From Abditibacteriaceae bacterium (lineage in GTDB: Bacteria; Armatimonadota; Abditibacteriia; Abditibacteriales; Abditibacteriaceae): 32,915 bases of DNA. The DNA lies in NCBI GenBank assembly GCA_031425655.1, contig JANPJS010000063.1, positions 1 to 32,915 of the forward strand, in the 5' to 3' direction. Both the position numbers and the translations under genes were made by a program. The first letter of the stretch is position 1. Every line of letters begins with the position of its first letter. The notes under the pieces were generated by a model, which did not search any database, had not been told where the DNA came from, and was given only the letters and a program-made list of their open reading frames with translations. Below are positions 4,109 through 32,915 of the stretch, piece by piece.

Positions 4109-5728
4109 CTATTTTCTGGCGCGCTTTAGCCACCACGCGCCGCCAACTCCGACGATAAAAGCGCTGATAAGTGCCGTCAAAATCAGCGTTGCCTGCCCGC
4201 TTTGGCCATTCGGCGCAGCGGTAGCCGAAGCATTTTCCCCAATCGCATCGAGAACCTTGAACTCAGCCTTTGGCTCGGCATACCAGAACGCCACCCAACG
4301 ATAAATTAAGTCATCCGAGTTATTAGATTTTCCATGCTCGAAGTCGAAGCGCAGCGACTTTTTGAACGGCACGGCATCGGGAATCATCAGGCGATAAGCC
4401 GACACGCCCGGTGGCATTTCGCTTTTGAAGGTCATGCCGTGATAGGGAAACGAAAACGGCTGCTTGGGAAAATACCACGCCGAGCTAAAAAAGTCTTCGG
4501 TTCCCGTGCCCTCGAACGCTTCGCCGTCGGCGGTAATCGTTTCGTTGCCTTCGAGATAAGCAAACGTGCGCCGCCGTGAATCCGGCGCCGGCACGATAGA
4601 CAAATTCAGCCCACAAAACGCGCCTTTGCCGGTCACATCCAGCATCCGCACCGGCGTTTTAAGCTGCGTTCGCGTTGCGCCATAAACGGCATGAAAACGA
4701 TAGGGCGGCGCTGTTTTCAATTGAAAACTACGGATTTTGCTCTCGAACGCAACCGGAGCGCTGCCAGTGTTGACGAAAGTAATTTTCGCGCCTTTCGAGA
4801 ACGGCATCGGCCATTTTAGCACGGCGATTTTTCCGTCGAAATCGAAGCCTGCGCTTTGCGCTTTTTTCCCGCCGTCGAACAAGCTAAGTAGCGCGGAAAC
4901 CGGCGCATCAATGGCGTTCGCCGCAGCGCCGTCCCACGCCGCGCGCATTCGCAGCGATTTCACGTCGTCGGGTTTTTGCAACGTCAATTCCAAAGTTTTA
5001 ATTTGCCCAACGCCTTTCAAATCAATGACTTTTTCGGCGCCGGGCGCCAGCAAGTTGCTTAACGATTCGCTCAGCGGCTTGGGTAAAGGCGCTGTCCATG
5101 CGGGAGGATTTGGACGAATTGTAATCTGGTAGAAGAATTTATTTTCGTCCTTGCTGACGTTGGTTACAGCCAATTGCGGCGAGTTGCCACTTAGCGTATC
5201 GGTGGGTGCGAACTGTCCGTGTTTGTATTCGCTTCGCTTCTCAATTTCTGCGGGGTCTTCCTCAGGCGGCAATAACAAAAAGGCCTTTTGGTGAATCGAG
5301 ATGTGATTGTAAACGAATGGGCCAACCGATTGTATTTTTCCGTTTCGGGCCAGCAGCCATGGGGTTCCCAAATCATCGCTCAACAAGCGGGTTTCTATCT
5401 TTTCCGGCTCCAACGCCGTCCACCAAAGTCGCTCCAAACGCCCCGATGCCAGCGGGATTTTGCGCGTTTCGCCCGGTTTCAGCAGCAGATAATCTTCGTT
5501 TTCATGCTTCGGGTCGGTCGAAGCGAACCATTTATACGGCGGCGCATCGGGCGCAGAAAGCAGCGATTCGTTGGCGGCGAAGGCTTGCTTGGCGACTAAA
5601 GTCGCGGCAACAACGCAGCAAAGCCTGCCTGCGCAGGCTGAATTTCGAGATTTAGTCGCCGAAGGGCGACTTCGCTGAGTTGTTGCCGCGACTTTAGTCG
5701 CCAGGCCGCACTTAATAAATGGTGCCAT
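4109..5728 (-). CDS. DUF2961 (GH172-like) domain protein with N-terminal signal and C-terminal membrane anchor
   Basis: EGNE...GTGTEDFFSSAWYF, SAYR...PFKKSLRFDFEHG and VAFWY motifs. C-terminal TM segment with a KRARK tail. GGAGG lies 8 nt before ATG 5728. Confidence 0.8.
   Translation of the reverse strand: MAPFIKCGLATKVAATTQRSRPSATKSRNSACAGRLCCVVAATLVAKQAFAANESLLSAPDAPPYKWFASTDPKHENEDYLLLKPGETRKIPLASGRLERLWWTALEPEKIETRLLSDDLGTPWLLARNGKIQSVGPFVYNHISIHQKAFLLLPPEEDPAEIEKRSEYKHGQFAPTDTLSGNSPQLAVTNVSKDENKFFYQITIRPNPPAWTAPLPKPLSESLSNLLAPGAEKVIDLKGVGQIKTLELTLQKPDDVKSLRMRAAWDGAAANAIDAPVSALLSLFDGGKKAQSAGFDFDGKIAVLKWPMPFSKGAKITFVNTGSAPVAFESKIRSFQLKTAPPYRFHAVYGATRTQLKTPVRMLDVTGKGAFCGLNLSIVPAPDSRRRTFAYLEGNETITADGEAFEGTGTEDFFSSAWYFPKQPFSFPYHGMTFKSEMPPGVSAYRLMIPDAVPFKKSLRFDFEHGKSNNSDDLIYRWVAFWYAEPKAEFKVLDAIGENASATAAPNGQSGQATLILTALISAFIVGVGGAWWLKRARK
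5590..5703. repeat. 114-bp palindromic element inside the 5' end of the DUF2961 ORF
   Basis: Perfect ~25-bp terminal inverted repeat TGGCGACTAAAGTCGCGGCAACAAC, with internal hairpins AGCCTGCCTGCGCAGGCT and AGTCGCCGAAGGGCGACT. Confidence 0.9.
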
Positions 5729-6096: not shown

Positions 6097-6205
6097 TCTC
6101 TCGCAAAGACGCAAAGTCGCCAAGAAATTTCAGGTGATTTCGTGAGTCACACTTTGTCATCCTTAGAATCTTGTCTTCTTGGCGACTTTGCGTCTTTGCG
6201 AGAGA
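6097..6205. repeat. Intergenic inverted repeat (CGCAAAG-type family)
   Basis: Perfect 30-bp arms TCTCTCGCAAAGACGCAAAGTCGCCAAGAA at 6097-6126 and 6176-6205. Confidence 0.9.
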
Positions 6206-8001: not shown

Positions 8002-8245
8002 CTCATGTTACGCAGTAGGATGTGATAGGGCAGAAGAGCGGCTTTGCCGCTCGTGAAAACCCCCAACCCCCTTGGTAAGGGGGCTATGTTCTTACGCTTA
8101 TGAACAAGAATAACGTAATTCCAGTAAAAAAGCGTCTTCGTTTAGCCCCCTTACCAAGGGCGGGCGCCCTCTGGGCAGGTGGGGTTTTCACGAGCGGCAA
8201 AGCCGCTCTTTGCACCGCCTAACACTCCTCACTGCGTAAGGTGAA
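8002..8245. mobile_element. MITE-like long palindrome, copy 1
   Basis: Ends CTCATGTTACGCAGT and ACTGCGTAAGGTGAA. Inner arms AAGAGCGGCTTTGCCGCTCGTGAAAACCCC...CTTGGTAAGGGGGCTA. Homologous to 11678-11881. Confidence 0.75.
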
Positions 8246-11643: not shown

Positions 11644-11923
11644 AAAGCGGGGCTGACGCCTCCTTCCAATCAACAACTCACGTTACGCAATTGAGATTTA
11701 AGAGCGACTTTGTCGCTCATGGAAACCCCCAACCCCCTTGGTAAGGGGGCTATATTCTTACGCTTTGGGAGAAAATAAGCTGGATTTCTCCCTCCAAGTA
11801 ACGATTTAGCCCCCTTACCAAGGGGGTTGGGGGTTTCCATGAGCGACAAAGTCGCTCTTAAATCTCAACCGCATAACATCAATCAACAACATTCGGATTG
11901 GAAAAGGGCGTCAGCCCCGCTTT
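11644..11923. repeat. Outer REP-like hairpin interrupted by MITE copy 2
   Basis: Arms AAAGCGGGGCTGACGCCTCCTTCCAATC (11644-11671) and GATTGGAAAAGGGCGTCAGCCCCGCTTT (11896-11923). Confidence 0.85.
11678..11881. mobile_element. MITE-like long palindrome, copy 2, with target-site duplication
   Basis: Long inverted arms flanked by the direct repeat ATCAACAAC (11669-11677 and 11882-11890). Homologous to 8002-8245. Confidence 0.8.
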
Positions 11924-12394: not shown

Positions 12395-12468
12395 AAACGA
12401 ACCCAGAGCGTAAGCGACGGGCTTTTCGCTAAGGTGTTAAGCCCGTCGCTTACGCTCTGGGTTCGTTT
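12395..12468. repeat. REP-like inverted repeat
   Basis: Perfect 30-bp arms AAACGAACCCAGAGCGTAAGCGACGGGCTT with a 14-nt loop. Confidence 0.9.
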
Positions 12469-12484
12469 CGGTTCGTATGCGTTT

Positions 12485-13444
12485 TTACGGCGTGAGTTTT
12501 TTGGCGTCGGAGCCTTTTTCGTGGCCGTCGGTGGTGACGACGTAGACCTTGCCCCACACCGTCGAACCCGTCGGCAAATACTGCGCGCCGACCGTGAATT
12601 CTTGCACGTTAGGCGCTAAGTCGCCGATGGAAACTTCGCCGTCGCTTTTGTATTTCGGCCCGGCGCTGATGCGAAAGCTGTAACGCTCTAAATCGGGCGC
12701 CGTTGTGGCCGTCCATGTGGCGTGCGCGGTGTGATTGGCGGCGTCTACCGTCACGCTGAGCGCCACGGCTTCGGGCGTGGTGCCGGTGGCGCGCGGGTTG
12801 ACAGTCGGCAGGTTGAGCACGAAAGGGCTGTCGGCGGGATATTCGGCTAAAATGGCGCGGCGATATTCGGCAAAGATGTCTTTCACTTCGCGCGCTGCGT
12901 TGTCGCGCTGATCGTGGAGAATCGGCAGCGTGCCGTCTAAGGTGCCGATGGCCGTTACTTTGTCGCTGAGCGTCGAAACCAGCGTGTCGAAGGAGGCGCG
13001 CGTCCAGCCGTCGCGGGTGAGAAGCGGGTCGTCGCCGCGCGCCACATTGATGGCCTCCCAACGTGCCGAAACGCGGCCATAGACTGTCAACAGGTCGGCG
13101 TCGGCGGCTTTTTGTTGCGGGAGCGTCGGCAGGTCGGCGAGGAGCGAGTCGCCCTCCATTTGATAAAGCGCCGCTTTGCGCCACGCATCCATGCCATCGC
13201 GGGTTTGGGTGCGCAGTCCGTCGCGTTGTGCGGCTAAAACCACACGATTCTGGTCTTTGGCGTCGCTTTCGGCGATTCTGTCGTCCAAAACGGCGATTTT
13301 GGACTGGAAATCGAGCAAAGTCACGTCCGATTTGAGCACAAGGGCCGTTTTTCCGTTGGCGACGCGGTCGGCATTAACTGCCGTCCAACTGTTTACGAAC
13401 AGCGGCGCCCGCTCTTTGACCTGATTAGCCAGCACTCTTTCCAT
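12485..13444 (-). CDS. Hypothetical protein: two tandem helical repeats plus a C-terminal beta-rich (FN3-like) domain
   Basis: AAGGAG RBS, host-like codon usage and an internal duplication. C-terminal ATWTA..PDLERYS...VYVVTTDGHEKGS resembles an FN3-type beta sandwich. Confidence 0.75.
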   Translation of the reverse strand: MERVLANQVKERAPLFVNSWTAVNADRVANGKTALVLKSDVTLLDFQSKIAVLDDRIAESDAKDQNRVVLAAQRDGLRTQTRDGMDAWRKAALYQMEGDSLLADLPTLPQQKAADADLLTVYGRVSARWEAINVARGDDPLLTRDGWTRASFDTLVSTLSDKVTAIGTLDGTLPILHDQRDNAAREVKDIFAEYRRAILAEYPADSPFVLNLPTVNPRATGTTPEAVALSVTVDAANHTAHATWTATTAPDLERYSFRISAGPKYKSDGEVSIGDLAPNVQEFTVGAQYLPTGSTVWGKVYVVTTDGHEKGSDAKKLTP

Positions 13445-13546
13445 GACATTCTCCTTCCTAACGAGACAACAAAATGGTTCTTTAGCTTGACCTGTGTCTT
13501 TGATGGCTTAACGGGCTGCTACGATGGCTCAACATCACATTATTGT

Positions 13547-13714
13547 AATGATACTGGAATGTTTAGTCGCAATAATGCCATGTTGAGCGAGGATAATGGC
13601 AGGTTAAGCGACAGTAACACCCAGTTCAGCGAGGATAATAGCAAGTCAAGCGAGCGTAACGGCAAGTCAAGCGACAGTAACAGCAGGTCAAGCGACAAGA
13701 ATCGGAAGTTGAGC
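13547..13714. repeat. Degenerate 21-bp tandem array, 8 units
   Basis: Units such as GAGGATAATGGCAGGTTAAGC, GACAGTAACACCCAGTTCAGC, GAGCGTAACGGCAAGTCAAGC and GACAGTAACAGCAGGTCAAGC. Confidence 0.85.
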
Positions 13715-13748
13715 GACCACAGGGGCCGCCCCTACAGTTCGGCTGAGA

Positions 13749-13840
13749 CAATTGTAGCAAGCGGCGGCGGCGTTGTCAGCAAGTCGGTTTTAAGTAGCAC
13801 GCAATCGACCGCAATCCTTCCGCATAATTACGAGTTGGGC
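13749..13840 (+). repeat. Repeat A copy 1: promoter block plus attI-like simple site
   Basis: 52/57 identity (13749-13805 vs 15941-15997) and 25/28 identity (13809-13836 vs 16041-16068). Ends in GCATAAT-TACGA-GTTGGGC. Confidence 0.85.
13751..13779 (-). promoter_or_regulatory. Leftward sigma70-type promoter within repeat A1
   Basis: Bottom strand CTGACA-N17-TACAAT with a TGn extended -10. Confidence 0.65.
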
Positions 13841-13859
13841 CGGTGCGCGCAGTTTGGTT

Positions 13860-13959
13860 ACTACATCCGACCGCCGCCAGCTTGGTTCTTTGCGCGATGT
13901 TCCGGGTAAACTGTGTCCAAGTGGCGTCTGCGCGGCGGAGGGTGAGTCTGGCGTTGGGC
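13860..13959 (+). other. attC-like recombination site remnant (R'' box missing or degenerate)
   Basis: L''-like ACTACATC pairs with L'-like GGTGAGT (13941-13947), leaving one extrahelical base. Stems CCGCCGC/GCGGCGG and CTTGG/CCAAG. A 5-nt spacer then GTTGGGC (GTTRRRY) at 13953-13959. Confidence 0.6.
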
Positions 13960-14017
13960 AGTAGTAGGCCGACGGAACGGAGCAGTCACCAATTATTAAA
14001 AAGTAAAATAACCCCAC

Positions 14018-15001
14018 ATGGCTAACAAATCGCATTTCAATAGTGGCCACATAGCACTAAATCAATTGAAAAAGAATGGAGCTTCGCATAGTTCTACAAT
14101 CACTGGAATTTCAACGCCTCATACGGTTCATGGTGTCTTTATCCAAGATGCGGTTGAGTTTTTGAAGACATTGCCTGATTCATCAGTTCAGCTAATTCTA
14201 ATAGACCCGCCCTATAATCTTGATCTTGACAAGTGGGATACATTCAACAACTATCTCGATTGGGCAAAAGCATGGTTGGATGAAATTTACCGTGTGTTAT
14301 CTGATTCAGGTAACTGTGTCATTTTTGGCGGCTTCCAGTATCAGGATTTAAAGAAGGGAGACCTCCTTGAAATACTCCATTACACTCGCCATGAAACAGC
14401 TTTGCGATTTGTCAATCTTGTTATTTGGTATTACAAAAACGGTATGAGTGCGCATCGTTTTTTTGCCAACAGGCATGAAGAAGCAATTTGGCTCTCCAAA
14501 ACGAAGAAATACTATTTCGACTTGGACTCTGTTAGGGTGCCCTTTGATGAGGCGACAAAAGAGATTTACAAAAAAGATAAGCGTCTCAATCCTGAAAGCA
14601 TTGAAAAGGGGAAAAATCCTACAAATGTTTGGGAGATAGGAAGGCTAAACGGCAATTCGAGGGAGAGGGTTGGTCATTTAACGCAAAAGCCCGCCGAACT
14701 TATCCGGCGTTTTGTTAAGGCTCTGTCCTTTGAGGGTTCGATAGTCCTCGACTTTTTTGCCGGGTCTGGAACAACGGGACGTGTTTGCATAGAAGAGCGA
14801 CGGCATTCACTCTTAGTGGATTCAGATAATAAACTGCACGGTTATTTAGATGAACACATTAAGCAGATCAAATCGAATCTGTTCCTGCCTAAATACACTC
14901 TAATGACAGACTCCAACATTGATGCCGTGCTCGAAGAGATTGCTTTTGCGAATCAACAACTGCAAAAAAATCTGGTTGTAAAGGATTGTCCCAATGAGTA
15001 A
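14018..15001 (+). CDS. Beta-class N6-adenine DNA methyltransferase, M.RsrI-like
   Basis: DPPY precedes HLTQKP and LDFFAGSGTT (beta order). The N-terminus MANKSHFNSGH resembles M.RsrI as I recall it. Visibly AT-richer than the host genes. Confidence 0.9.
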   Translation: MANKSHFNSGHIALNQLKKNGASHSSTITGISTPHTVHGVFIQDAVEFLKTLPDSSVQLILIDPPYNLDLDKWDTFNNYLDWAKAWLDEIYRVLSDSGNCVIFGGFQYQDLKKGDLLEILHYTRHETALRFVNLVIWYYKNGMSAHRFFANRHEEAIWLSKTKKYYFDLDSVRVPFDEATKEIYKKDKRLNPESIEKGKNPTNVWEIGRLNGNSRERVGHLTQKPAELIRRFVKALSFEGSIVLDFFAGSGTTGRVCIEERRHSLLVDSDNKLHGYLDEHIKQIKSNLFLPKYTLMTDSNIDAVLEEIAFANQQLQKNLVVKDCPNE

Positions 15002-15797
15002 AAGACAAACAGGACGGCTAACCAACCAGCATATATCATCGGGAGGCGCTAGCGGTATCTTTGGCGCAGATGCTCAGGCGCATGACAAGTTTGTCGGTCG
15101 TGCAAGTTTGAACGTATTCGAGAAGCTTAAGCAACAATATCCGAGATACCAATTTAGATTTAGAACATCGCTCAGCAAACAGGAGATAAATGAAAAGCTA
15201 AACTCAATTGATAAGCGATTGGGAGAAACTCTTTTCGTAAAAATTTCAAGTATCAAACCTGATGGAGGAATTATCGAGGTTCAGGACAAAGATAATAAAT
15301 GGCGGGTAGTTTTAGTTAGCGAAGCAAAGTTTCAGGGGAAAGATATTGAAAACATTACAGCAGGGACACTTGTTGGGAAGAACAAAGATCAAGTGTTCAT
15401 GGCAGCGGGGAATGCAATCGAAAGAGTTTACAAAAACATTAATGAAATTAGGAATTTCATGCTGGACGAAAATCATTTCCCGTATGCAGTATTTTTGCAA
15501 GGCTCGAACTTTGCCACTGAAGTTGTTCAGGTGTTCAAACCCGACGGTTCTTTTGTGGAAATTAGACATGACTCAGGTTTATTGAACAGAATTGATAGAG
15601 TAACGGCGGCGAATTATTGCATGAAGATTAACAGCAATTACTGTAAAAATATGTTCATAGCTCACAGTAACTCGTCCATCATGCTTCAAGCAGCTTCCAT
15701 ATACGCAAGATGCGAACTTTGGAAAGAAGATGAAATGGAACAGATTATGATGGATATTGCAAATACATCCATAGGGATTTTAAATCAGTTGGGGTAA
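14994..15797 (+). CDS. EcoRI/RsrI-family type II restriction endonuclease (predicted target GAATTC)
   Basis: IKPDGGIIEV...VVLVSEAK (PD...EAK), MAAGNAIER and HFPYAVFLQGSNF match EcoRI. 8-bp overlap with the MTase gene. Confidence 0.93.
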   Translation: MSKRQTGRLTNQHISSGGASGIFGADAQAHDKFVGRASLNVFEKLKQQYPRYQFRFRTSLSKQEINEKLNSIDKRLGETLFVKISSIKPDGGIIEVQDKDNKWRVVLVSEAKFQGKDIENITAGTLVGKNKDQVFMAAGNAIERVYKNINEIRNFMLDENHFPYAVFLQGSNFATEVVQVFKPDGSFVEIRHDSGLLNRIDRVTAANYCMKINSNYCKNMFIAHSNSSIMLQAASIYARCELWKEDEMEQIMMDIANTSIGILNQLG

Positions 15798-15798
15798 C

Positions 15799-15836
15799 AC
15801 AAGAGATTCTTTTGGCAATGGGTAAAACGACCTCTT
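15799..15836 (+). repeat. Repeat B copy 1
   Basis: ACAAGAGATTCTTTTGGCAATGGGTAAAACGACCTCTT, 34/38 identical to 16700-16737. Both copies are followed by a T-run and GCCTCTCC. Confidence 0.85.
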
Positions 15837-15854
15837 TTTTGCCTCTCCTTTTAG

Positions 15855-15886
15855 GCGCGCTTCTCCGGCGAGAAGCGCGCTTTTTT
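15855..15886 (+). terminator. Rho-independent terminator after the R-M operon
   Basis: GCGCGCTTCTC-cggc-GAGAAGCGCGC-TTTTTT. Confidence 0.85.
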
Positions 15887-15940
15887 GTGTGTCGGATATG
15901 ACGCGGCGTTTTGACGATGAGCGTGCGCTGAAATTCACGC

Positions 15941-16072
15941 CAATCGTAGCAAGCGACGGCGGCGTTGTCAGCAAGGCGGTTCTCAGTAGCACGCAATTTT
16001 AGTGATCCAGATTCCATCATACAAGCGATCAAGCGATTATCCGCAATCCTTCCGCATAACTACTTGTTCTGT
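15941..16072 (+). repeat. Repeat A copy 2: promoter block plus attI-like simple site
   Basis: Same two blocks as A1, separated by an extra ~40 bp. Ends in GCATAAC-TACTT-GTTCTGT. Bottom strand CTGACA-N17-TACGAT. Confidence 0.85.
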
Positions 16073-16139
16073 CGATTGTGCGTGGCGCTTCTGAAATTGG
16101 AAGTGCAAAAAGATAAAATAGAAGGCGAAGAGGTGCGAT

Positions 16140-16355
16140 ATGCAAGCTCAAGAATTAATTATTTCTTCGCCAGATGTTTTGGGTGGCACGCCAGTTTTCA
16201 TTGGCACTCGCGTTCCGGTCAAGAATTTGACGGATTACATTGAGGCTGGAGATACACTGGATGAGTTTTTGGATGATTTTCCTTCGGTGTCGCGGGAACA
16301 AGCGGTCGAGTTTATAGAACAGGCGAAGGAGGCTTTGCTTGCTCAACTCGCCTAA
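16140..16355 (+). CDS. DUF433 antitoxin
   Basis: IISSPDVLGGTPVFIGTRVPV...GDTLDEFLDDFPSVSREQ. Confidence 0.92.
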   Translation: MQAQELIISSPDVLGGTPVFIGTRVPVKNLTDYIEAGDTLDEFLDDFPSVSREQAVEFIEQAKEALLAQLA

Positions 16356-16689
16356 TCCGCTTCGTGTTTTATTAGATGAGTGCCTGCCCAAGAAGCTCAA
16401 ACGTGAATTTACAAACTGCATGGTTTCCACCGTTGCTGAAATAGGCTGGGCAGGCAAGAAGAACGGTGAGTTGATGAAAGTCGCTCACGGCCACTTCGAT
16501 GTATTCGTCACGGCTGACCAGAATTTGCAATATCAGCAGAATTTGGCTTATGCGGACATTGGCGTTGTGGTTCTCGTCGCAATCAACAATCGTATTGAAA
16601 CGCTTGCGCCGCTCATGCCGCAGGTTAATGAAGCACTCAAAAGCATCGCAGCCGGTCAGGTTATCGAAATCGAGGCCGCAACCGATTAA
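16339..16689 (+). CDS. DUF5615 PIN-like toxin
   Basis: RVLLDECLP...GWAGKKNGEL...FDVFVTADQNLQYQQNL. TTG start with AAGGAGG 6 nt upstream, overlapping the antitoxin. Confidence 0.9.
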   Translation: MLNSPNPLRVLLDECLPKKLKREFTNCMVSTVAEIGWAGKKNGELMKVAHGHFDVFVTADQNLQYQQNLAYADIGVVVLVAINNRIETLAPLMPQVNEALKSIAAGQVIEIEAATD

Positions 16690-16699
16690 CAGCCACACA

Positions 16700-16737
16700 A
16701 CAAGAGACTCTGTTGACAAGGGGTAAAACGACCTCTT
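16700..16737 (+). repeat. Repeat B copy 2
   Basis: ACAAGAGACTCTGTTGACAAGGGGTAAAACGACCTCTT. ACAAGAG and CTCTTGT close a short hairpin. Confidence 0.85.
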
Positions 16738-16822
16738 GTCTTTTTTATTTTTCGCCTCTCCCTTCAGTCTGCTTCAAACTCCCAATCGGCCACTTGGCGG
16801 ACTCATTCTGCGCGCCGCATAG

Positions 16823-16831
16823 TGCTATAAT
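16823..16831 (+). promoter_or_regulatory. Extended -10 promoter element for the EF-G-like gene
   Basis: TGCTATAAT ~30 nt upstream of the start codon, with a GGAGG RBS between them. Confidence 0.55.
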
Positions 16832-16863
16832 GCCTTTTAATTCCCCGATTTTTGGAGGTTGAG

Positions 16864-18912
16864 ATGAAAGAATATGCTCCTGAAGCGATCAGGAACGTGG
16901 CTTTCGCCTCGCATAGCGGTTCCGGCAAGACCAGTCTTGCGGAAGCCTGCCTGTATCTTGCGGGAGCGACCGACCGGCTGGGCAAAGTGGACGACGGCAA
17001 CGCCGTCAGCGATTATCTGCCCGAAGAAATCAAGCGCCGCAGCTCGATTTGGACGGGTGTGATGGCCTTCGAGCACGAAAAGCTGAAAATCAACCTGCTC
17101 GACACGCCCGGATATGCCGACTTCTTCGGCGAGGTGGTGTCAGCGCTCAACGCCGTCGAAAATGTCGTGCTTGTGGCCAACGCCACGCATCCGGTTGAAT
17201 TTGGGTTGGAACACGCCGCGCAACACGCCATGTCTCACGGACTGGCGTGTTTTGTTTTTATCAACGAACTGGATAAAGAGCGCGCCAACTACGACGTAAC
17301 CTTCGACGCCCTGCACGACCGGATGCACCTGCCCGTCGTCGCGCTGACTTATCCACTGGGACAGGAAAGCAGTTTGCGCGGCTGGATTGATGTCATCGAG
17401 GGCAAAGCCTACGAAGACGCAGCGGGCAAACTCAGCGAAGTGCCGATTCCCGACGGATGCAGGGCGCGCGTTGAAGAATTGCACTCGCAGTTGGTCGAGG
17501 CCATCGTCGAAGTGGACGACGCCGCGATGGAAAAGTATCTCGATGGCGGCCAGCTTTCGCGCGACGAGATTATTCCGCTGATTCGCCAGTGCATCTCGTC
17601 GGGGCGCATCGCGCCCGTTCTGTGCGGCAGCGCCACGAAATTGCTTGGCGTGCGCCGATTGCTCGATCAACTCGTGCTGTGCGCGGTGCCGCCGCAAGCC
17701 AAACAAGACGTAGCGGCAGATGCCAACGCACCCTTCGCGGGCTTCGTGGTGAAAACTTTTTCCGACCCGCACACAGGCCGCGCGACGTTTCTTAAAATCG
17801 TGCGCGGCACGCTGGGGCGCGAGTCCGAGATTATCAATCTCAGCAACGGTTCGCACGAGAAAATCGCGCACCTTTACGCGCCGCTGGGCAAAAAAAGCGC
17901 TGAAGTGTCGCAAATGTGCGCGGGCGACATCGCTTTAGTTTTGAAATTGAAAAACACGCACACCAACGACAGTTTGGGCGCCTCGTCCGACAGTCCGCGC
18001 TTCGCCAAACCCGATTATCCTCAATCGCTTTACGCCCTCGCCTTAGATCCGGCCACGCGCGGCGATGACGACAAAATGAACGAGGCCTTAGCACGCTTGT
18101 TGGACGAAGACCCATCGTTCCACGTTGTTCGCAACGCGGAAACCCATCAAACGGTGGCTTACGGATTGGGCGATGTGCATTTGCAAACCCTGATTTCGCG
18201 TTTGCAGAGCGCGTTCGGTGTGAAAATCAACGTCAGCCAGCCGCGCATCGCGTATCACGAAACAATTCGCAAAGCCGTCAAAGTTGAAGGCAAATTGAAA
18301 AAGCAGTCGGGCGGGCACGGGCAATTTGCCGATGTGTGGCTGGAAGTCGAGCCGAACGCGCCGGGCGCTGGCTTTGAGTTCGTGGATAAAATCGTCGGCG
18401 GCGTCGTTCCGCGCGCTTTTATTCCCGCCGTCGAGGAAGGCGTGCGCGACGCATTAAAAGAAGGCCCGTTGGCCGGCTGTCCGCTCGTGGACGTGAAAGT
18501 GACGCTCTACGACGGCAAGTTTCACGATGTGGATTCGTCGTATCAGACCTTCAAGCAGGCGGGTTCCTATGGCTTACGCAGCGGCGCCAAGGAAGCCGCG
18601 CCGGTTTTGCTTGAACCCGTGATGAACGTCACGGTTGTTGCGCCCGAAGGCGGCGCGGGCGATGTTGTCGGCGATCTCAATGGCAGGCGCGGCCAGATTC
18701 TCGGTATGGAGCCAACCGGCGATGGCACCGTAAAAATCAACGCCTTAGTGCCCGACGCCTCGCTGATGCAATATCCGATCACGCTGCGTTCGCTCACACA
18801 CGGCGAAGGCCAATTCACCAAGCAATTCGCGCATTATGCGCCGGTTCCCGATCACGCGGCGAAACCATTGATTGAGGAATACCAAAAGCGCCGCGAAGCG
18901 AACGGGCACTGA
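16864..18912 (+). CDS. fusA2: Elongation factor G paralog (EF-G2/EF-G-like)
   Basis: IRNVA..SHSGSGKTSL, DTPGYADF, GLGDVHL, KKQSGGHGQFA, DGKFHDVDSS and LLEPVM. Stand-alone gene with degenerate G motifs relative to canonical FusA. Confidence 0.88.
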   Translation: MKEYAPEAIRNVAFASHSGSGKTSLAEACLYLAGATDRLGKVDDGNAVSDYLPEEIKRRSSIWTGVMAFEHEKLKINLLDTPGYADFFGEVVSALNAVENVVLVANATHPVEFGLEHAAQHAMSHGLACFVFINELDKERANYDVTFDALHDRMHLPVVALTYPLGQESSLRGWIDVIEGKAYEDAAGKLSEVPIPDGCRARVEELHSQLVEAIVEVDDAAMEKYLDGGQLSRDEIIPLIRQCISSGRIAPVLCGSATKLLGVRRLLDQLVLCAVPPQAKQDVAADANAPFAGFVVKTFSDPHTGRATFLKIVRGTLGRESEIINLSNGSHEKIAHLYAPLGKKSAEVSQMCAGDIALVLKLKNTHTNDSLGASSDSPRFAKPDYPQSLYALALDPATRGDDDKMNEALARLLDEDPSFHVVRNAETHQTVAYGLGDVHLQTLISRLQSAFGVKINVSQPRIAYHETIRKAVKVEGKLKKQSGGHGQFADVWLEVEPNAPGAGFEFVDKIVGGVVPRAFIPAVEEGVRDALKEGPLAGCPLVDVKVTLYDGKFHDVDSSYQTFKQAGSYGLRSGAKEAAPVLLEPVMNVTVVAPEGGAGDVVGDLNGRRGQILGMEPTGDGTVKINALVPDASLMQYPITLRSLTHGEGQFTKQFAHYAPVPDHAAKPLIEEYQKRREANGH

Positions 18913-19025
18913 AAGAAGGGATGAGGGCGGAGGGATGAAGGATGAAAAGTCGCGTTTCACGCCGTTGGTTTTCGCGCCGCAGGCGCTTTTCATCCTTCAT
19001 CCTTCCGCCCTCATCCCTTCTTTCA
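18910..19025. repeat. Inverted repeat built from GGATGAA/GGCGGAA heptamers
   Basis: 40-bp arms TGAAAGAAGGGATGAGGGCGGAGGGATGAAGGATGAAAAG with 1 mismatch. Confidence 0.9.
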
Positions 19026-20762: not shown

Positions 20763-20834
20763 AGTTTTGAGTTTTGAGTTTTGAGTTTTGAGTTGAGCTG
20801 TTAACTCATAATTCAAAACTTAAAACTCAAAACT
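20763..20834. repeat. Heptamer (TTTTGAG)n tandem repeat with an inverted partner
   Basis: AGTTTTG x4, then TCAAAAC-type units in inverted orientation. Confidence 0.88.
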
Positions 20835-21843: not shown

Positions 21844-21960
21844 TTAAACACAAAGGACACAAAGCAGGCACAAAGGCTCACAAAGAAAGTTCAAGAAAAG
21901 GGGGCCGGTAATGAAAATCTTTGTGAGTCTTTGCGCTTGCTTTGTGTCCTTTGTGTTTAA
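21844..21960. repeat. Inverted repeat built from CACAAAG units
   Basis: 43-bp arms (21844-21886 and 21918-21960) with 3 mismatches. Confidence 0.9.
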
Positions 21961-25699: not shown

Positions 25700-28372
25700 A
25701 TGAACGACATTGAAAAAACCGACCGCTATCAACCAGCGGACATTGAAACCAAATGGCAAACGCGCTGGGCGCAGCGAGACTTGTTTCGCACCAGCGACGA
25801 TCCGTCGAAGCCAAAATTCTATTACCTGGATATGTTCCCCTACCCGTCGGGCGATTTGCACGTCGGGCACGTTCGCAATTACGCTATCGGCGACGCTATC
25901 GCGCGCTATCGTGTCATGAATGGCTTCGCGGTGCTGCATCCGATGGGTTGGGACGCTTTCGGATTGCCCGCCGAAAACGCGGCGATTAAGAACCAAGTGC
26001 ATCCGCGCGACTGGACTTTGCGCTGCATCGAGCGAATGCACGAGCAATTCGCCAAATTGGGCATCGCCTTCGATTGGAATCACGAAGTCACGACCTGCCT
26101 GCCCGATTATTACAAGTGGACGCAGTGGCTTTTTCTGCAATTCTACAAGCGCGGATTGGCCGAACGGCGCGCGGCGAACGTCAACTGGTGCCCCAGTTGC
26201 GCGACGGTTTTGGCTAACGAACAAGTCAAAGACGGCGCCTGCGAACGCTGTAACTCAACCGTCGAACAAAAAACCTTGACGCAGTGGTTTTTCAAAACTA
26301 CCGCCTACGCACAGCGATTGTTGGACGATTTGGACGCATTAGAATGGCCCGAACGCGTGAAAACCATGCAGCGCCACTGGATTGGTCGCAGCGAAGGCGT
26401 GAGTTTTCACTTTCCGGTCCGGACCTCCCCTCCTGTGGGAGGGGTTGGGGGAGGGGAAGCCAAAACTATTGAAGTCTTTACGACGCGCGTGGACACGGTT
26501 TTCGGCGTCACTTACATGGTTTTGGCGCCCGATCATGCTTTAGTCGGCGATTTGGTGCGCGGCACGGAGTTCGAGACGCCCGCCGAAGAATTCAAAAACC
26601 ACGTCGCGCTGCAAAAAGACGAGCAGCGTGATCGCGGCGACGACATTCCCAAAGAGGGCATTTTCACCGGCGCTTATTGCATCAATCCGATGACTGGCGA
26701 AGACGTGCCGATTTGGCTCGGCAACTACGTGGTCAGCGATTACGGCAGCGGCGCCGTGATGGCCGTCCCAGCGCACGATCAGCGCGATTGGGAATTCGCT
26801 AAAGCACACGATTTGGCGATTAAAGTCGTGATTGGACCGCCCTCACCCCCGGCCCCTCTCCCAATCCGCTTCGCGGGAGAGGGGAGCAGGTTAGAACTTG
26901 GTAGCGTTTCGCTTTCTGATGTCGAGTCTGCATTCCCACTCCCCTCTCCCGCGAAGCGAATTGGGAGAGGGGCCGGGGGTGAGGGCGAACTCGGCGCCTA
27001 CGAGGAATATGGCGTTCTCATCAATTCCGGCGAATTTTCCGGCCTGTCATCGGCGGACGCTAAAACCAAAATCGCCGAATTCATGGAGGCGAACGGCATC
27101 GGTAAGCGCACCGTAAATTTCCGGTTACGCGATTGGTGTTTGTCGCGCCAGCGTTATTGGGGCTGCCCGATTCCCGTCATTTATTGCGAAGACGGCACGA
27201 TTGAAGCCGTGCCGGAAGACCAATTGCCGGTTTTGTTGCCGACCGATGTGAAATTCACCGGGCAGGGCGGCAATCCGCTTTTGACCAGCGATACCTTCCT
27301 CAACGCGACGGATTCGCAGGGCCGTCCGGCGCGGCGCGAAACCGATACGATGGATACCTTCGTGGATTCGTCGTGGTATTTTCTGCGCTATTGCTCGCCC
27401 GATTCCGCCGATGCGCCGTTTCGCGCCGAAGAAGTTGGGCGCTGGATGAACGTGGATCAATACGTCGGCGGCATCGAGCACGCTACGATGCACCTGATTT
27501 ACGCCCGTTTTTTCAACAAAGTGCTTTTCGATACGGGCATGGCGCCGACTTCAGAGCCGTTCGCGCGCTTGTTCACGCAAGGCATGGTCACGATGTATTC
27601 CGAAAAGGAAGACAAAGTGCTGAAAATGAGCAAAAGCAAAGGCAACGTGGTGGCGCTCGACCACGCCGTTTCGCGCTTTGGCGCCGACGCCACGCGCATG
27701 GCCACGCTTTATCTCGGCCCAGCGGAAATCGACGCCGAATGGGACAGAGACAGCGATAAAGTCTTCGTCGGCCCCTATCGTTTTCTGGAAAAAGTCTGGC
27801 GACTGGCTCTGGCGCGGCCTTTTACGGCCAACTGGCGCGAAATTATCGGAGAGGTTTCGCCCGCTGATGTGAAGCTGCGCCGCAAAACGCATCAAACGAT
27901 TCTCAAAGTCGGCGCCGACATCGAACGCTTTTCCTTGAATACAGCTTTAGCCGCATTGATGGAATTTTCCAACACGCTGCAAGAATGGCACAGCAAAAGG
28001 ATGAAGGATGAAGGCGGAAGTCTGAGCGAAAACGCCGTGTATTCCGAAGCGATTGAATCGCTTTTGGTGCTTTTAGCGCCGTTCGCGCCGCATCTTGCCG
28101 ATGAATTACTGGAACAACTCGGCTTCGCGTCGTCGGCTTACGAAATGGCGTGGCCAAAGGGCGACGCAGAACTGGCAAAGGAAGAAGAAATCGTGATGCC
28201 GGTGCAGATCAACGGCAAACTGCGCGCAAGGTTGACCGTTCCCGCTGATAGCGATGAGGAAACCGTGCGACAAGCCGCATTGGGCGACGCCGATGTGCAA
28301 GCGCAACTCGGCGGAGCCGCGCCCAAGCGCGTTATCATCGTGCCGGGCCGTTTAGTCAACATCGTCGCGTAA
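25700..28372 (+). CDS. leuS: Leucine--tRNA ligase carrying repeat-derived insertions
   Basis: MFPYPSG.LHVGH, WIGRSEG, TTRVDT, GAVMAVPAHDQRD, DWCLSRQRYWG, GGIEHA, KMSKS and RLVNIV. Confidence 0.98.
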   Translation: MNDIEKTDRYQPADIETKWQTRWAQRDLFRTSDDPSKPKFYYLDMFPYPSGDLHVGHVRNYAIGDAIARYRVMNGFAVLHPMGWDAFGLPAENAAIKNQVHPRDWTLRCIERMHEQFAKLGIAFDWNHEVTTCLPDYYKWTQWLFLQFYKRGLAERRAANVNWCPSCATVLANEQVKDGACERCNSTVEQKTLTQWFFKTTAYAQRLLDDLDALEWPERVKTMQRHWIGRSEGVSFHFPVRTSPPVGGVGGGEAKTIEVFTTRVDTVFGVTYMVLAPDHALVGDLVRGTEFETPAEEFKNHVALQKDEQRDRGDDIPKEGIFTGAYCINPMTGEDVPIWLGNYVVSDYGSGAVMAVPAHDQRDWEFAKAHDLAIKVVIGPPSPPAPLPIRFAGEGSRLELGSVSLSDVESAFPLPSPAKRIGRGAGGEGELGAYEEYGVLINSGEFSGLSSADAKTKIAEFMEANGIGKRTVNFRLRDWCLSRQRYWGCPIPVIYCEDGTIEAVPEDQLPVLLPTDVKFTGQGGNPLLTSDTFLNATDSQGRPARRETDTMDTFVDSSWYFLRYCSPDSADAPFRAEEVGRWMNVDQYVGGIEHATMHLIYARFFNKVLFDTGMAPTSEPFARLFTQGMVTMYSEKEDKVLKMSKSKGNVVALDHAVSRFGADATRMATLYLGPAEIDAEWDRDSDKVFVGPYRFLEKVWRLALARPFTANWREIIGEVSPADVKLRRKTHQTILKVGADIERFSLNTALAALMEFSNTLQEWHSKRMKDEGGSLSENAVYSEAIESLLVLLAPFAPHLADELLEQLGFASSAYEMAWPKGDAELAKEEEIVMPVQINGKLRARLTVPADSDEETVRQAALGDADVQAQLGGAAPKRVIIVPGRLVNIVA
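26424..26456. repeat. Half palindromic element in-frame in leuS
   Basis: CCTCCCCTCCTGTGGGAGGGGTTGGGGGAGGGG, encoding SPPVGGVGGG. Confidence 0.75.
26839..26986. repeat. 148-bp palindromic element in-frame in leuS
   Basis: 48-bp arms GCCCTCACCCCCGGCCCCTCTCCCAATCCGCTTCGCGGGAGAGGGGAG with 1 mismatch. Each arm is itself a hairpin. Confidence 0.95.
27997..28020 (+). repeat. GGATGAA heptamer tract in-frame in leuS
   Basis: AAGGATGAAGGATGAAGGCGGAAG (RMKDEGG), the same units as 18910-19025. Confidence 0.75.
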
Positions 28373-30233: not shown

Positions 30234-32768
30234 ATGAAAGAAGCAACGGCACGCATCAAAATCAACAAGATGCTTGAAGAAGCAGGATGGCGTTTTTTTG
30301 CTGATGAGGGTGGCCCCGCGAATATCCGATTGGAGCCGGGCGTCACGCTAAAAAAGAACGAACTCGACGCATTAGGCGAAGATTTCGAGAAGGCGAGCAA
30401 GGGCTTTATTGATTTCCTGCTGCTTGATTCCAAAAACTTTCCGCTCATTGTGCTGGAAGCGAAAGCCGAAGATAAAAACCCGCTTAATGGAAAAGAACAA
30501 GCCCGCAAATATGCCAAGTCGCTTAATTGTCGCTTTGTGATTTTGTCCAACGGCAATCTGCACTACTTTTGGGACTTGGAGCGCGGCAACCCGAACATTA
30601 TCACGGCGTTTCCCACGCCCGAATCGGCAGGAGCTTATAAAAAGACAGAGCCAAATCCGCAAAAGTTGATTGAGGAGGAAGTCAACGACGACTATATCGT
30701 TCTCACGCAGCGGCCCGATTATCAAGCGGTGGCGGCGTGGAAAAACCAAGCGGAGCGGCCCGCCTACATTCAAGCCAACAAGTTGCGCTTTTTGCGGGAC
30801 TATCAGAAGAACGCCATCCGGCACTTGCAAAAGGCGGTTAAAGAACAGAAAGACCGTTTTTTGTTTGAAATGGCAACCGGAACCGGCAAAACGCTGACAT
30901 CGGCGGCGGTTATAAAATTGTTTCTGCGTTCGGGCAATGCCAAACGGGTGCTGTTTTTAGTGGATCGCCTCGAATTGGAAGACCAAGCCAAGAAAGCGTT
31001 TAGCGCGTTATTAGCCAACGATTACAAAACCGTCATCTTCAAAGAAAACCGCGACGACTGGCACCATGCGGAAATTGTTGTCACCACGGTGCAATCGCTG
31101 CTGTTCAACAATAAATATAAGTCGCTTTTTTCGCCAACGGATTTCGACCTTGTGATTTCCGACGAAGCGCATCGTTCGATTGGCGGCAACTCACGCGCGG
31201 TTTTCGAGTATTTCGTGGGCTATAAGTTGGGATTAACCGCTACGCCGCGCGATTATTTGAAACTCTTCGACAAAACCAGCCCGACTACCCGCGACCCGCG
31301 CGAATATGAGCGCCGGATGCTGCTCGATACCTACCGCACTTTCGGCTGCGAAGACGGAACGCCGACATTTCGCTATACGCTCCTTGATGGCGTCAAAGAT
31401 GGCTTTTTGATTAACCCGACCGTCGTGGATGCACGGACGGAAATCACCACCGAGTTACTTTCGGAAAAGGGTTACATTCGGGAATTTAAAGATGAGCAGG
31501 GCGAAGATCAAAAGCAGGTTTTCGAGCAGCGCGATTTTGAAAAGCGTTTCTTTTCGGAAGCCAGCAACGAGGTTTTTTGCGCGACCTTTCTCAACAAGGC
31601 AATGCGCGACCCGGTGAGCGGTGAAATCGGCAAGTCCATCGTCTTCGCCGTCAGTCAGAACCACGCTTCTAAGTTGGCGCAGATTTTCAACGTGATGGCC
31701 GACACGATGTTTCCCGGTAAATATCAATCGGACTTCGCGGTGCAGGTGACTTCGCAAATCGAAGGCGCGCAGCAGTTCACCATCAACTTCGCCAACAATA
31801 ATCTGCTCGGTTCGGCCAATTTTTTGGATGAATACAAAACCAGCAAGGCGCGCATTTGTGTGACTGTCGGCATGATGACGACGGGCTACGATTGCCCCGA
31901 TATTCTCAATCTTGGCTTGTTTCGCCCGATATTCTCGCCGACGGATTTCATTCAAATCAAAGGACGCGGCACTCGCAAGCACGATTTTCGCGAAGAACTG
32001 ACCGACGCGGAGATGAAGGAAAACGTCGCCGAGCCGGAGAAAACAGCGTTCAAACTCTTTGATTTCTTTGCCAACTGCGAATACTTCGACAAAGAATTCA
32101 AATACGACGAAGTGCTGGAACTGCCCGCGTTGAAAACGGGTGAAAGCAAAAGCGACCCGCCGGGCGGCGTGGTTGTGGTCGGCGGCGCTTATGAATATCA
32201 GGGCGGCGATATTCTCGCCACGCTGCAAGAGCAACCCATCGGCGCCGAGGGCATGAAGATTGACCGGATGCTTTTCGAGAAGTTTGAAGACCGCGTCAAA
32301 GCCGACAGTTTCATCGCCGACAGCGTGCAAAGCGGGCAATGGGAGCGCGCCATTGAATACATCAACCGCGAAGTGCTGAACCAGCCCAACGAATTCTACA
32401 CACTCGACAAGCTCCGCAAAGCCGCCGCTGTTGATCGGCGCCTTTCGATGCGCGAAATCGTCGAAAAAGTCTTCGGCTTGATTCCGCGCTTTAAATCGAA
32501 GGATGAACTGCTCGAAGAAGAATTTCAAAAGTTCCTCGCCGAACAAACGCCCGAAAACGTCGAAGATATTCCGGCGCTGCGTAATTTTTTCAAGGCTTAC
32601 GCTACCAGCAATCTCGTGCGCGAAAGCATTGATAGCAGGCAGTTCACCGACCTCGCTACCAACGCGGTTTTCTCGACCACCGACCTCAAAGCTGTGCCGA
32701 CTCCATACCGCACGGCGATTCCCGAATATATCAAGAATTATGTGCCGCTAAATCAGTTTGCGGGGTGA
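30234..32768 (+). CDS. hsdR: Type I restriction enzyme R subunit-like (nuclease + DEAH SF2 helicase)
   Basis: EATARIKINKMLEEAGW, IDFLL...LEAK...QA..YA, LSNG, LRDYQ, MATGTGKT, DEAHRS, GLTATP, MMTTGYD and QIKGRGTR. Confidence 0.88.
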   Translation: MKEATARIKINKMLEEAGWRFFADEGGPANIRLEPGVTLKKNELDALGEDFEKASKGFIDFLLLDSKNFPLIVLEAKAEDKNPLNGKEQARKYAKSLNCRFVILSNGNLHYFWDLERGNPNIITAFPTPESAGAYKKTEPNPQKLIEEEVNDDYIVLTQRPDYQAVAAWKNQAERPAYIQANKLRFLRDYQKNAIRHLQKAVKEQKDRFLFEMATGTGKTLTSAAVIKLFLRSGNAKRVLFLVDRLELEDQAKKAFSALLANDYKTVIFKENRDDWHHAEIVVTTVQSLLFNNKYKSLFSPTDFDLVISDEAHRSIGGNSRAVFEYFVGYKLGLTATPRDYLKLFDKTSPTTRDPREYERRMLLDTYRTFGCEDGTPTFRYTLLDGVKDGFLINPTVVDARTEITTELLSEKGYIREFKDEQGEDQKQVFEQRDFEKRFFSEASNEVFCATFLNKAMRDPVSGEIGKSIVFAVSQNHASKLAQIFNVMADTMFPGKYQSDFAVQVTSQIEGAQQFTINFANNNLLGSANFLDEYKTSKARICVTVGMMTTGYDCPDILNLGLFRPIFSPTDFIQIKGRGTRKHDFREELTDAEMKENVAEPEKTAFKLFDFFANCEYFDKEFKYDEVLELPALKTGESKSDPPGGVVVVGGAYEYQGGDILATLQEQPIGAEGMKIDRMLFEKFEDRVKADSFIADSVQSGQWERAIEYINREVLNQPNEFYTLDKLRKAAAVDRRLSMREIVEKVFGLIPRFKSKDELLEEEFQKFLAEQTPENVEDIPALRNFFKAYATSNLVRESIDSRQFTDLATNAVFSTTDLKAVPTPYRTAIPEYIKNYVPLNQFAG

Positions 32769-32791: not shown

Positions 32792-32915
32792 CCCCATCCC
32801 CGGCCCTTCCCCTTAAACGACAGGGGAAGGGAGGTCAGACCCTTTTGCTTCGGGAGAATTATTAGTTTTTCGGGGAATATGCGTGCTCTCCCTTCCCCTG
32901 TCGTTTAAGGGGAAG
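32792..32915. repeat. Palindromic element related to the large leuS insert (truncated by the window end)
   Basis: Left arm CCCCATCCCCGGCCCTTCCCCTTAAACGACAGGGGAAGGGAG. Bases 32888-32915 are the perfect reverse complement of 32806-32833. Confidence 0.88.

Follow-up and report, generated by a model that had tools for sequence, protein, structure and literature searches.

Gene cassettes between putative orphan attI sites and IS110 end remnants in an Abditibacteriaceae genome

Results

Gene content of the locus

The window analysed here, a stretch of 32,915 nucleotides from an Abditibacteriaceae bacterium (assembly GCA_031425655.1, contig JANPJS010000063.1, below C63), carries two unrelated gene pairs on the forward strand. 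The first consists of an RsrI-like N6-adenine methyltransferase (14018-15001) with DPPY and FxGSG motifs, classed as N6/N4 methylase and closest to M.RsrI (E 2e-101), and of a restriction endonuclease of the EcoRI/RsrI family (14994-15797; PF02963, E 9e-131; PADLOC REase_II). The second is a DUF433/DUF5615 (PIN) toxin-antitoxin (TA) pair (16140-16355 and 16339-16689), presumably VapB45/VapC45-like. Domain matches and the M.RsrI match agree with the naming of both cargoes in a preliminary description of this DNA, which had been made from the sequence without database searches. Both cargoes are also AT-richer than their surroundings, as had been estimated by eye: GC content is 40.8% for the restriction-modification (R-M) unit and 47.7% for the TA unit, against 60.8% and 58.3% for the flanking genes and 56.7% for the genome.

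Upstream lies a divergent gene of unknown function (12485-13444, reverse strand), followed by a degenerate 21-bp tandem repeat (13572-13716). Its 319-aa product has no match in Pfam, NCBIfam or PADLOC; in Atlas it is surrounded by hypothetical proteins, with one cluster at 23% fn3, and the recognition score is under the threshold of the tool. An orthologue with 55% identity is present in the related genome G001, where an attI with a different cassette lies upstream; of 11 other matches to the protein, this orthologue is the only one with a clear upstream attI. Metagenome scans for the divergent gene found nothing. In G001, G002 and G003, the region preceding the fusA orthologue showed neither of the two repeats described below.

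Repeat A resembles an integron attI site

Each cargo is bracketed by two non-coding repeats, A and B, whose previously reported identities could be reproduced. The copies of A agree in 52/57 positions (13749-13805 against 15941-15997) and in 25/28 positions (13809-13836 against 16041-16068; BLASTN E = 3e-16), the two parts being separated by 3 nt in the first copy and 43 nt in the second. As described before, the similarity stops at GTT, beyond which 6/24 nucleotides agree.

The distal part of A1 (13749-13805, reverse strand) holds a sigma70-like promoter facing away from the cassette (CTGACA-17-TACAAT with TG extension, 13779 to 13751), and the distal part of A2 (15941-15997, reverse strand) holds the second copy of this promoter-like site, likewise directed leftward (15971 to 15943). 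These are consensus matches only, with six sites against 5.4 expected in shuffles; both copies of A have one. The proximal part contains a putative attI core, assigned in A1 by profile and alignment: in A1 (13809-13836) GCATAAT at 13822-13828, a 5-nt spacer and a G|TT crossover at 13834/13835, in A2 (16041-16068) GCATAAC at 16054-16060, the same spacer and G|TT at 16066/16067. With an attI profile trained on seven intI-linked attI of relatives (other genomes), the A1 core ranks in the top 0.25% of 183,410 GTT sites and the A2 core only in the top 1.9%. The A2 core sits where a twin of the TA cassette on another contig (C314) has its attC.

Repeat A thus has the parts of a simple attI, namely left box, spacer of about 5 nt, G|TT and a cassette boundary at the crossover, more strongly in A1 than in A2, and from its sequence we take it to be an integron attI of the orphan kind that carries a putative divergent promoter. 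Its likeness to other attI is confined to about 17 nt. Since it has none of the inverted accessory boxes seen in attI of the type linked to the integrase gene of this genome (contig C103, see below), and since A2 scores weakly, it may escape recognition by the C103 enzyme. The expectation that both repeats recur in the genome held for B, of which four additional copies had been overlooked, and failed for A: BLASTN gave no third copy in the 5.98-Mb assembly, the DNA of 40 relatives gave two short G002 matches covering the attI core and cassette start, and no further copy was found in metagenome contigs.

The cargoes as gene cassettes

The R-M cassette (13835-15801) contains in its leader (13860-13959) a degenerate attC without R'', recognised by alignment and overlooked before. 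A contig from another sample (run X2) matches the window from 13832 and has a different attI-like site upstream, while a second contig (X10) matches 13844-14889. The 5' boundary of the cassette is accordingly kept behind another attI-like site, and the leader travels with the R-M unit; its reading as a separate, deleted cassette was rejected. The 3' end of the cassette is damaged, scores as background (37th percentile) and has no intact R'' or attC.

The TA cassette (16067-16702) ends in R'' (16695-16701), and its 3' end is in the top 0.02% of AAC sites. Its attC-bounded twin (C314:9069-9704; 83.9% identity over 596 nt, with the same two boundaries) has the TTRRRY-like start, R'' and full attC of a gene cassette, the attC of the window copy being cut after R''. 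Between the cargoes, beside the first copy of B, a degenerate copy of the TA cassette start opens at GTT (15908-15935, forward strand). It agrees in 25/33 columns, a score reached by 4/10,000 shuffles and by 16/20,000 random genomic 65-mers, the significance being computed post hoc.

By their sequence, we conclude, the R-M and TA cargoes are true integron cassettes starting at G|TT. The earlier view of A as an attI-type site that takes up cassettes at G|TT is borne out by the attI profile, the C314 twin and the boundary in the X2 contig.

Repeat B is the right end of an IS110 element

The copies of B (15799-15836 and 16700-16737; 34/38 identity) begin 2 and 11 nt past the stop codons at 15797 and 16689, where a start within about 10 nt had been stated. 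They belong to two stumps on the reverse strand, each comprising a core dinucleotide and an insertion sequence (IS) right end: B1 (15802-15907, right limit approximate; core 15802-15803) and B2 (16703-16754; core 16703-16704). B1 carries a forward-strand terminator hairpin (15853-15882) and is nearer to the hairpin-bearing variants of G002 and G003. B2, with a forward-strand terminator at 16715-16740, shows 54/56 identity to the end of a full element on contig C54 of the same genome. Both stumps have a variant-specific motif in common.

Full copies are found on C54 and in G003 (contig C29). The C54 copy is inserted in an attC, and its in silico removal restores a complete attC. The element has 1258 bp and is IS621/ISCro4-like (E 2e-61); its transposase combines the DEDD RuvC-like domain PF01548 with PF02371 and its conserved serine, the domain pair of the IS110 group. 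Its left end is a 190-nt non-coding region upstream of the transposase with predicted guides around a CT core, containing 9-nt matches to attC (18/5000 shuffles) and to B (12/5000 shuffles). The right target guide has 7-8 nt and the left-end guides are conserved in three variants; three of the four guides are clear, and the 4-nt right donor guide is at chance (4831/5000 shuffles). A plasmid search gave no match to the element, and neither the window nor the IS left end had an Rfam match at the gathering threshold.

Among the B-like ends of relatives, 27/29 are without most of the transposase and, likewise, 27/29 are preceded by a cassette-end signature. Two doubtful G021 matches and two G002 C277 matches are left out of these tallies, and one locus at a contig start (L027) out of the cassette-end scoring; the AAY before B, being an element of the search pattern, was not counted as evidence. 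We conclude that B represents the right end of an IS621-like IS110 element that targets attC and whose predicted bridge-RNA guides match it. B as attI half, attC half, REP or plain terminator repeat was ruled out, B being the end of a full IS110, and assignment to the IS1111-attC group failed, the guides lying upstream and not downstream of tnp. The proposed role of B as partner of A in a docking platform does not hold, for B is also seen behind main-array cassettes and behind cassettes at sites without A.

One integrase and many orphan attI sites

As had been noted, the window is without a recombinase gene: Pfam finds none among its 24 ORFs, and of six PF00589 matches in the genome none is on C63. 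The preliminary description had placed the integrase elsewhere, and a genome-wide profile search confirms one IntI, on C103 (321 aa; TIGR02249, 428 bits, cut-off 265), adjoined by an attI and five cassettes. There is one IntI per genome, though in an assembly of 327 contigs a further intI could be unassembled.

Of 29 automatically called array heads, 14 reach the top 1% of the attI profile and 11 its top 0.1%, the intI-linked head included; internal cassette starts have their median at the 39th percentile. The 15/29 heads that do not score as attI may be in part miscalled starts and in part insertions at secondary genomic sites (attG). A1 and 13 of the orphan heads have more than the attG motif alone (GWT), and A2 and 15 heads are weak or do not score. 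The genome thus has, to judge by these scores, about 15 putative orphan attI without adjacent intI, A1 and A2 among them. The relative G014 has one intI and at least seven orphan attI, each between an unrelated host gene and an attC-ended cassette; as the loose attI pattern used for relatives yields chance matches, only individually inspected sites were counted. Orthologous orphan loci with different cargo are found in two genome pairs, this genome (G000) with G001, whose locus has the same attI box, and G014 with G024 (upstream 88% over 303 nt), which points to loading in trans. Remnants of intI adjoin one further locus of this genome (C211) and 3/20 family loci examined (L207, L211, L212), so that some orphan sites are dead integrons.

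The idea of dispersed attI sites with different cargo is therefore upheld by many sites in the genome and its relatives; a defence-cassette system is not, the cargo across loci (ORF starts inspected by eye) being mixed and not mainly defence. About half of the earlier interpretation is right, and it is partly supported as a whole.

Discussion

A probable decayed satellite of the chromosomal integron

We consider it likely that the locus is a decayed satellite of the chromosomal integron system. By this account A1 and A2 are two of the orphan attI of the genome, and the C103 IntI or its ancestor, acting in trans, would have inserted cassette circles there at G|TT, which is consistent with the observed cassette boundaries. 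An attC-programmed, IS621-like IS110 would then have entered reversed just past R'' and split the attC, as it did in the full copies of G000 (C54) and G003 (C29) and presumably at B1 and B2; for B1, direct insertion needs a small deletion in addition, the R-M end not scoring as R''. The remaining IS, the remaining attC and any downstream cassettes have been lost, probably by deletion and perhaps under selection, and 50-110 bp of the right end with a terminator stay. With the attC lost, the usual recombination of attI with attC can no longer excise the cassettes. The tandem, the step of which we are least certain, may stem from duplication or additive recombination of the attI-cassette-stump unit, with no dedicated A-B recombinase.

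More tentatively, and as a possibility to which we give somewhat less than even credence, the system may be a distributed integron, in which a single integrase serves many attI scattered behind host genes, the attC-aimed IS110 acts as a terminator-donating lock and A-to-B brackets are possibly reloaded. If true, this would offer mobile cassettes a path to becoming permanent genes of the chromosome.

In a rival reading, A-B is a slot that IntI loads at A while an event between the new attC and the B junction drops the old cassette and so restores A-cargo-B with new cargo, either through the IS110 recombinase with B as half donor or through slippage at a common AACAAG. In G002 one attI platform occurs at least four times (85-97% identity), each time with another first cassette and with a B end; two of these copies also have about 130 nt after B in common. 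The same genome has 18 B-type matches against zero left-end matches; the motif common to B1 and B2 fits as well. We nevertheless regard such a slot as unlikely. Right-donor mismatches are, according to Durrant et al. (PMC11208160), generally poorly tolerated; in two G002 copies the sequence before B seems partly homologous, unlike a new cassette start, so that ordinary deletion fits; B follows main-array cassettes within full elements; and an empty A-B site, which the preliminary description led one to expect, was found neither in the genome nor in 40 relatives or metagenome contigs.

In another reading A is no dedicated attI: it would be an attG located at a promoter of the host, the -10-like box of that promoter being similar to the left box of attI. 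This appears very unlikely, even though, according to 10.1101/2022.09.11.507474, cassettes integrate widely at GWT and SALINs are common, and though A matches other attI over the short stretch given above, with a weak score for A2. The published consensus is just GWT, but the heads described here have a 14-nt box in common with intI-linked attI of other genomes, several orphans resemble longer intI-linked platforms, and the orthologous G001 locus has the same box. We give hardly any credence to the reading that every orphan site is the inert relic of a complete integron, loaded while its own intI was there, with no present action in trans. The intI remnants beside four loci and the heavy decay within the window would suit it, as would the palindrome GAATTC, which shows no avoidance genome-wide (rank 45/64 palindromes), so that the R-M pair has not long been a force in this genome. 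Against it, cassettes differ between orthologous intI-less loci in two genome pairs, and a further orphan array of this genome contains the twin of the TA cassette.

Significance and relation to known systems

By sequence, the R-M pair is an ordinary RsrI-type system and the TA pair an ordinary DUF433/DUF5615 member; only their cassette context is unusual. The literature already describes CALINs, a single CALIN with attI, and IS1111 elements that target attC. Our literature search, mostly open-access, found no genome-wide multi-attI system and, among the matches listed, no Armatimonadota integron; nor did it find an IS110-group attC targeter, though one might be listed in the ISfinder-wide supplementary tables that accompany PMC11187229 and PMC11208160. 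On the origin of CALINs and solitary cassettes and on the fixation of cassettes as genes, our results suggest that many intI-less arrays in Abditibacteriaceae begin at real attI copies missed by current tools, and that attC-guided IS110 stumps conceal a further class of cassettes without remaining attC.

The locus is not a complete integron, in which intI adjoins attI, since C63 has no IntI. Nor is it, judged by attC count, a CALIN by the IntegronFinder definition (at least two attC without intI), as it holds a single degenerate attC without R''. CALINs and SALINs likewise have attC-type cassettes without nearby intI, and their re-use by a remote integrase has been proposed (PMC4889954; 10.1101/2022.09.11.507474), in surveys which were unable to search for attI beyond classes 1-3. 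Many arrays described here differ in being headed by a recognisable attI, whereas the window locus has no intact attC and would probably be missed by an attC-based search. The published CALIN with attI likewise has an additional attI at the head of an array without intI; there it is one extra site in one prophage, here about 15 (G000) and at least seven (G014) at unrelated chromosomal loci. In Delta-attI-type cassettes of mobile integrons, attI-derived sites within arrays are recombinable by IntI and replace attC at the cassette end (PMC12901181), whereas the attI copies described here head separate units and bring upstream platform DNA.

The IS1111-attC group is reportedly the subject of papers by Tetu and Holmes in 2008 and by Post and Hall in 2009. 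Its members (ISKpn4, ISPst6, ISPa25) are described in PMC11187229 as attC-targeting and are likewise RNA-guided DEDD insertion sequences aimed at attC; they have a long non-coding region downstream of tnp and 11-13-bp subterminal inverted repeats. The element described here has its non-coding end upstream, a CT core and an IS621-like protein, which place it in the IS110 group, and it survives mostly as right-end stumps. With the IS621 bridge recombinase (PMC11208160; PDB 8WT6) it shares the domain pair, a left-end RNA (predicted for the element described here) with four guides, the CT core and a promoter-like junction upon circularisation; unlike those of IS621, its predicted guides match attC, so that it would be a natural IS621-like bridge recombinase with predicted attC programming. 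Taken together, the loci represent a known system of gene capture in an unusual form with multiple sites.

Integron integrase and repeat A

The source assembly (5.98 Mb, 327 contigs, the window being contig C63) encodes six tyrosine recombinases, one of them an integron integrase (C103:4880-5845; TIGR02249, 428 bits versus a cut-off of 265). The preliminary description had placed the recombinase outside the window, as is the case. The intI gene points away from an adjoining attI and five cassettes with family-typical attC. With attC from this array as query, 65 left and 65 right attC half-sites were found, scattered across many contigs (3 and 15 in the reversed-genome control). At C143:4717-5199, two attC-like ends on opposite strands face each other around a 365-bp segment.

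Re-checking the sequence reproduced both repeats, their identities and the low GC content of the cargo. Misassembly of the locus is unlikely, since window 12400-17400 is tiled without differences by contigs of one sequencing run, possibly the source run and hence not independent. The 3' part of repeat A (A1, 13749-13836; A2, 15941-16068) reads GCATAAY, five bases, GTT, the same arrangement as in the C103 attI. A 14-nt attI profile, trained on seven intI-linked attI from relatives only, was applied to all 183,410 GTT sites of the genome. Among 29 array heads called automatically by start/end complementarity, 14 rank in the top 1%, of which 11 reach the top 0.1% (intI-linked head counted), and internal cassette starts are unremarkable. 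A1 and A2, scored apart from these heads, lie in the top 0.25% and 1.9%, respectively. Judged by layout and profile rank, repeat A is an orphan attI, in line with its proposed role as an att-type docking site. Most array heads sit no more than a few hundred bases 3' of an ordinary host gene; three are near contig ends. The distal parts of A1 and A2 each contain a predicted leftward-facing sigma70-like promoter (consensus match only).

R-M and TA cassettes

Both cargoes had been proposed to be integron cassettes, and sequence comparison upholds this. The TA unit is 83.9% identical (596 nt compared) to a cassette of the C314 array. Homology begins at GTT, preceded by A2 in the window and by attC in C314, and stops at AACAAG, followed by B2 and attC, respectively; by these shared boundaries the TA unit is a true integron cassette. 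Its PIN-domain toxin gene (16339-16689) lacks an ATG at its 5' end (16339-16375), and the start codon is uncertain, as in the C314 twin. For the R-M unit, one contig of an unrelated sequencing run matches the window from 13832, behind a different attI-like sequence, and another contig matches 13844-14889. Because of both contigs, we place the start of this cassette at 13834/13835 and include in it a degenerate attC (13860-13959). The attC end box R'' at its 3' end is damaged. In the genome, GAATTC is not avoided (observed/expected 0.75); several other palindromes, CTCGAG and CCCGGG among them, are extremely avoided (about 0.01).

Repeat B and the IS110 element

Repeat B (B1, 15802 to about 15907; B2, 16703-16754) had been regarded as the docking-platform partner of A. 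It is instead the right end of an IS110 element, present in full on C54 (1258 bp, reverse orientation) within an attC; removing the element in silico restores a full attC. The transposase (PF01548, PF02371) is IS621/ISCro4-like. Within its 190-nt left end, one 9-nt stretch matches the attC target and another matches B (equalled by 18 and 12 of 5000 shuffles, respectively). The right target guide spans 7-8 nt, and the right donor guide, of 4 nt, is at chance level. All four guides are conserved across three element variants, and their predicted layout corresponds to the bridge-RNA layout outlined in PMC11208160.

Four further copies of B occur in the genome, each preceded by cassette-end AAC. 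Contigs C103 and C284 finish within the element and C143 and C283 begin within it, probably representing two additional full copies. At C193, B1 and B2 a right-end stump remains, and C172 holds a left-end remnant. B1 and B2 both retain a predicted terminator hairpin on the cassette strand. A small array at C41:16918 ends in a more diverged B-like hairpin, possibly of another IS variant.

Orphan attI sites and B-type ends in relatives

IntI is present in 12 of 40 relatives. In G001, the orthologue of the window's divergent gene (12485..13444, minus strand) adjoins an attI that is followed by another cassette, which ends in attC. G014 combines one intI with seven orphan units of attI plus cassette, and the stretches examined around these contain no remnant of intI; one of the seven loci is shared with G024 (88% over 303 nt), with differing cassettes. 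In G009 (three contigs), an orphan attI site lies 1.06 Mb from intI. Dispersed attI sites with varied cargo, as previously suggested, are thus evident from these orphan loci. Remnants of intI adjoin C211 of the source genome and 3 of 20 family loci examined. Divergent genes of 230-320 aa, with unassigned function and upstream 21-42-bp tandem repeats, repeatedly hold the intI position at orphan attI (window 12485-13716; L081, L083, L088, L089, L095 and L096, in the source genome, G001 and G002); their families show no mutual phmmer match and have many paralogues without attI.

Of 27 family genomes, 13 carry B-type ends. At least 600 nt follow 29 of 30 tallied matches; 27 of these 29 retain fewer than 80 codons of transposase and two are full elements. 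A cassette-end signature precedes 27 of 29 scored matches, and a terminator within 127 nt is kept in 18 of 29 versus 51 of 600 random stretches. The left end has almost always disappeared. G002 has 18 B-type and no left-end matches. One G002 locus mirrors the window: an attI with its cassette and B is followed by an attI of a second type, a HicB-containing cassette and another B. At L082:1496-1766, a B copy is interrupted by a short insert that has inverted repeats at its termini and is apparently flanked by a 7-bp target duplication. In L120:3180-3400, a second cassette begins at GTT immediately 3' of an IS right-end stump, which suggests that the stump served IntI as a secondary site.

Other features of the window

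Long intergenic inverted repeats of several REP- or MITE-like families lie at 5587-5706, 6097-6205, 8034-8210, 11644-11923, 12395-12468, 18910-19025, 20763-20834, 21844-21960, 26838-26987 and 32806-32915. A Type I/III restriction helicase-like gene (30234-32768) is located at the contig end.

Discussion

We propose that IntI inserts cassettes in trans into dispersed attI sites, that the IS110 element would then split their attC, and that later deletions would strip all sequence beyond the element right end. Intact orphan-site cassettes would remain excisable and locked ones would not, so that stumps may become enriched over time; the stump terminator may favour persistence. Because a degenerate copy of the TA cassette start sits between B1 and A2, the tandem is best explained as a product of duplication or additive recombination.

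The literature, as far as covered, yielded no description of genomes that combine many attI with a single intI, and none of an attC targeter of the IS110 group. The locus is real and its parts are known, and their combination and scale are apparently undescribed. CALINs, SALINs and mobilisation in trans have been described (PMC4889954; PMC9668308; PMC12444791; 10.1101/2022.09.11.507474), one CALIN bearing its own attI is on record (PMC9892861), as are Delta-attI cassettes (PMC12901181), and attC-targeting elements are known in the IS1111 group (PMC11187229).
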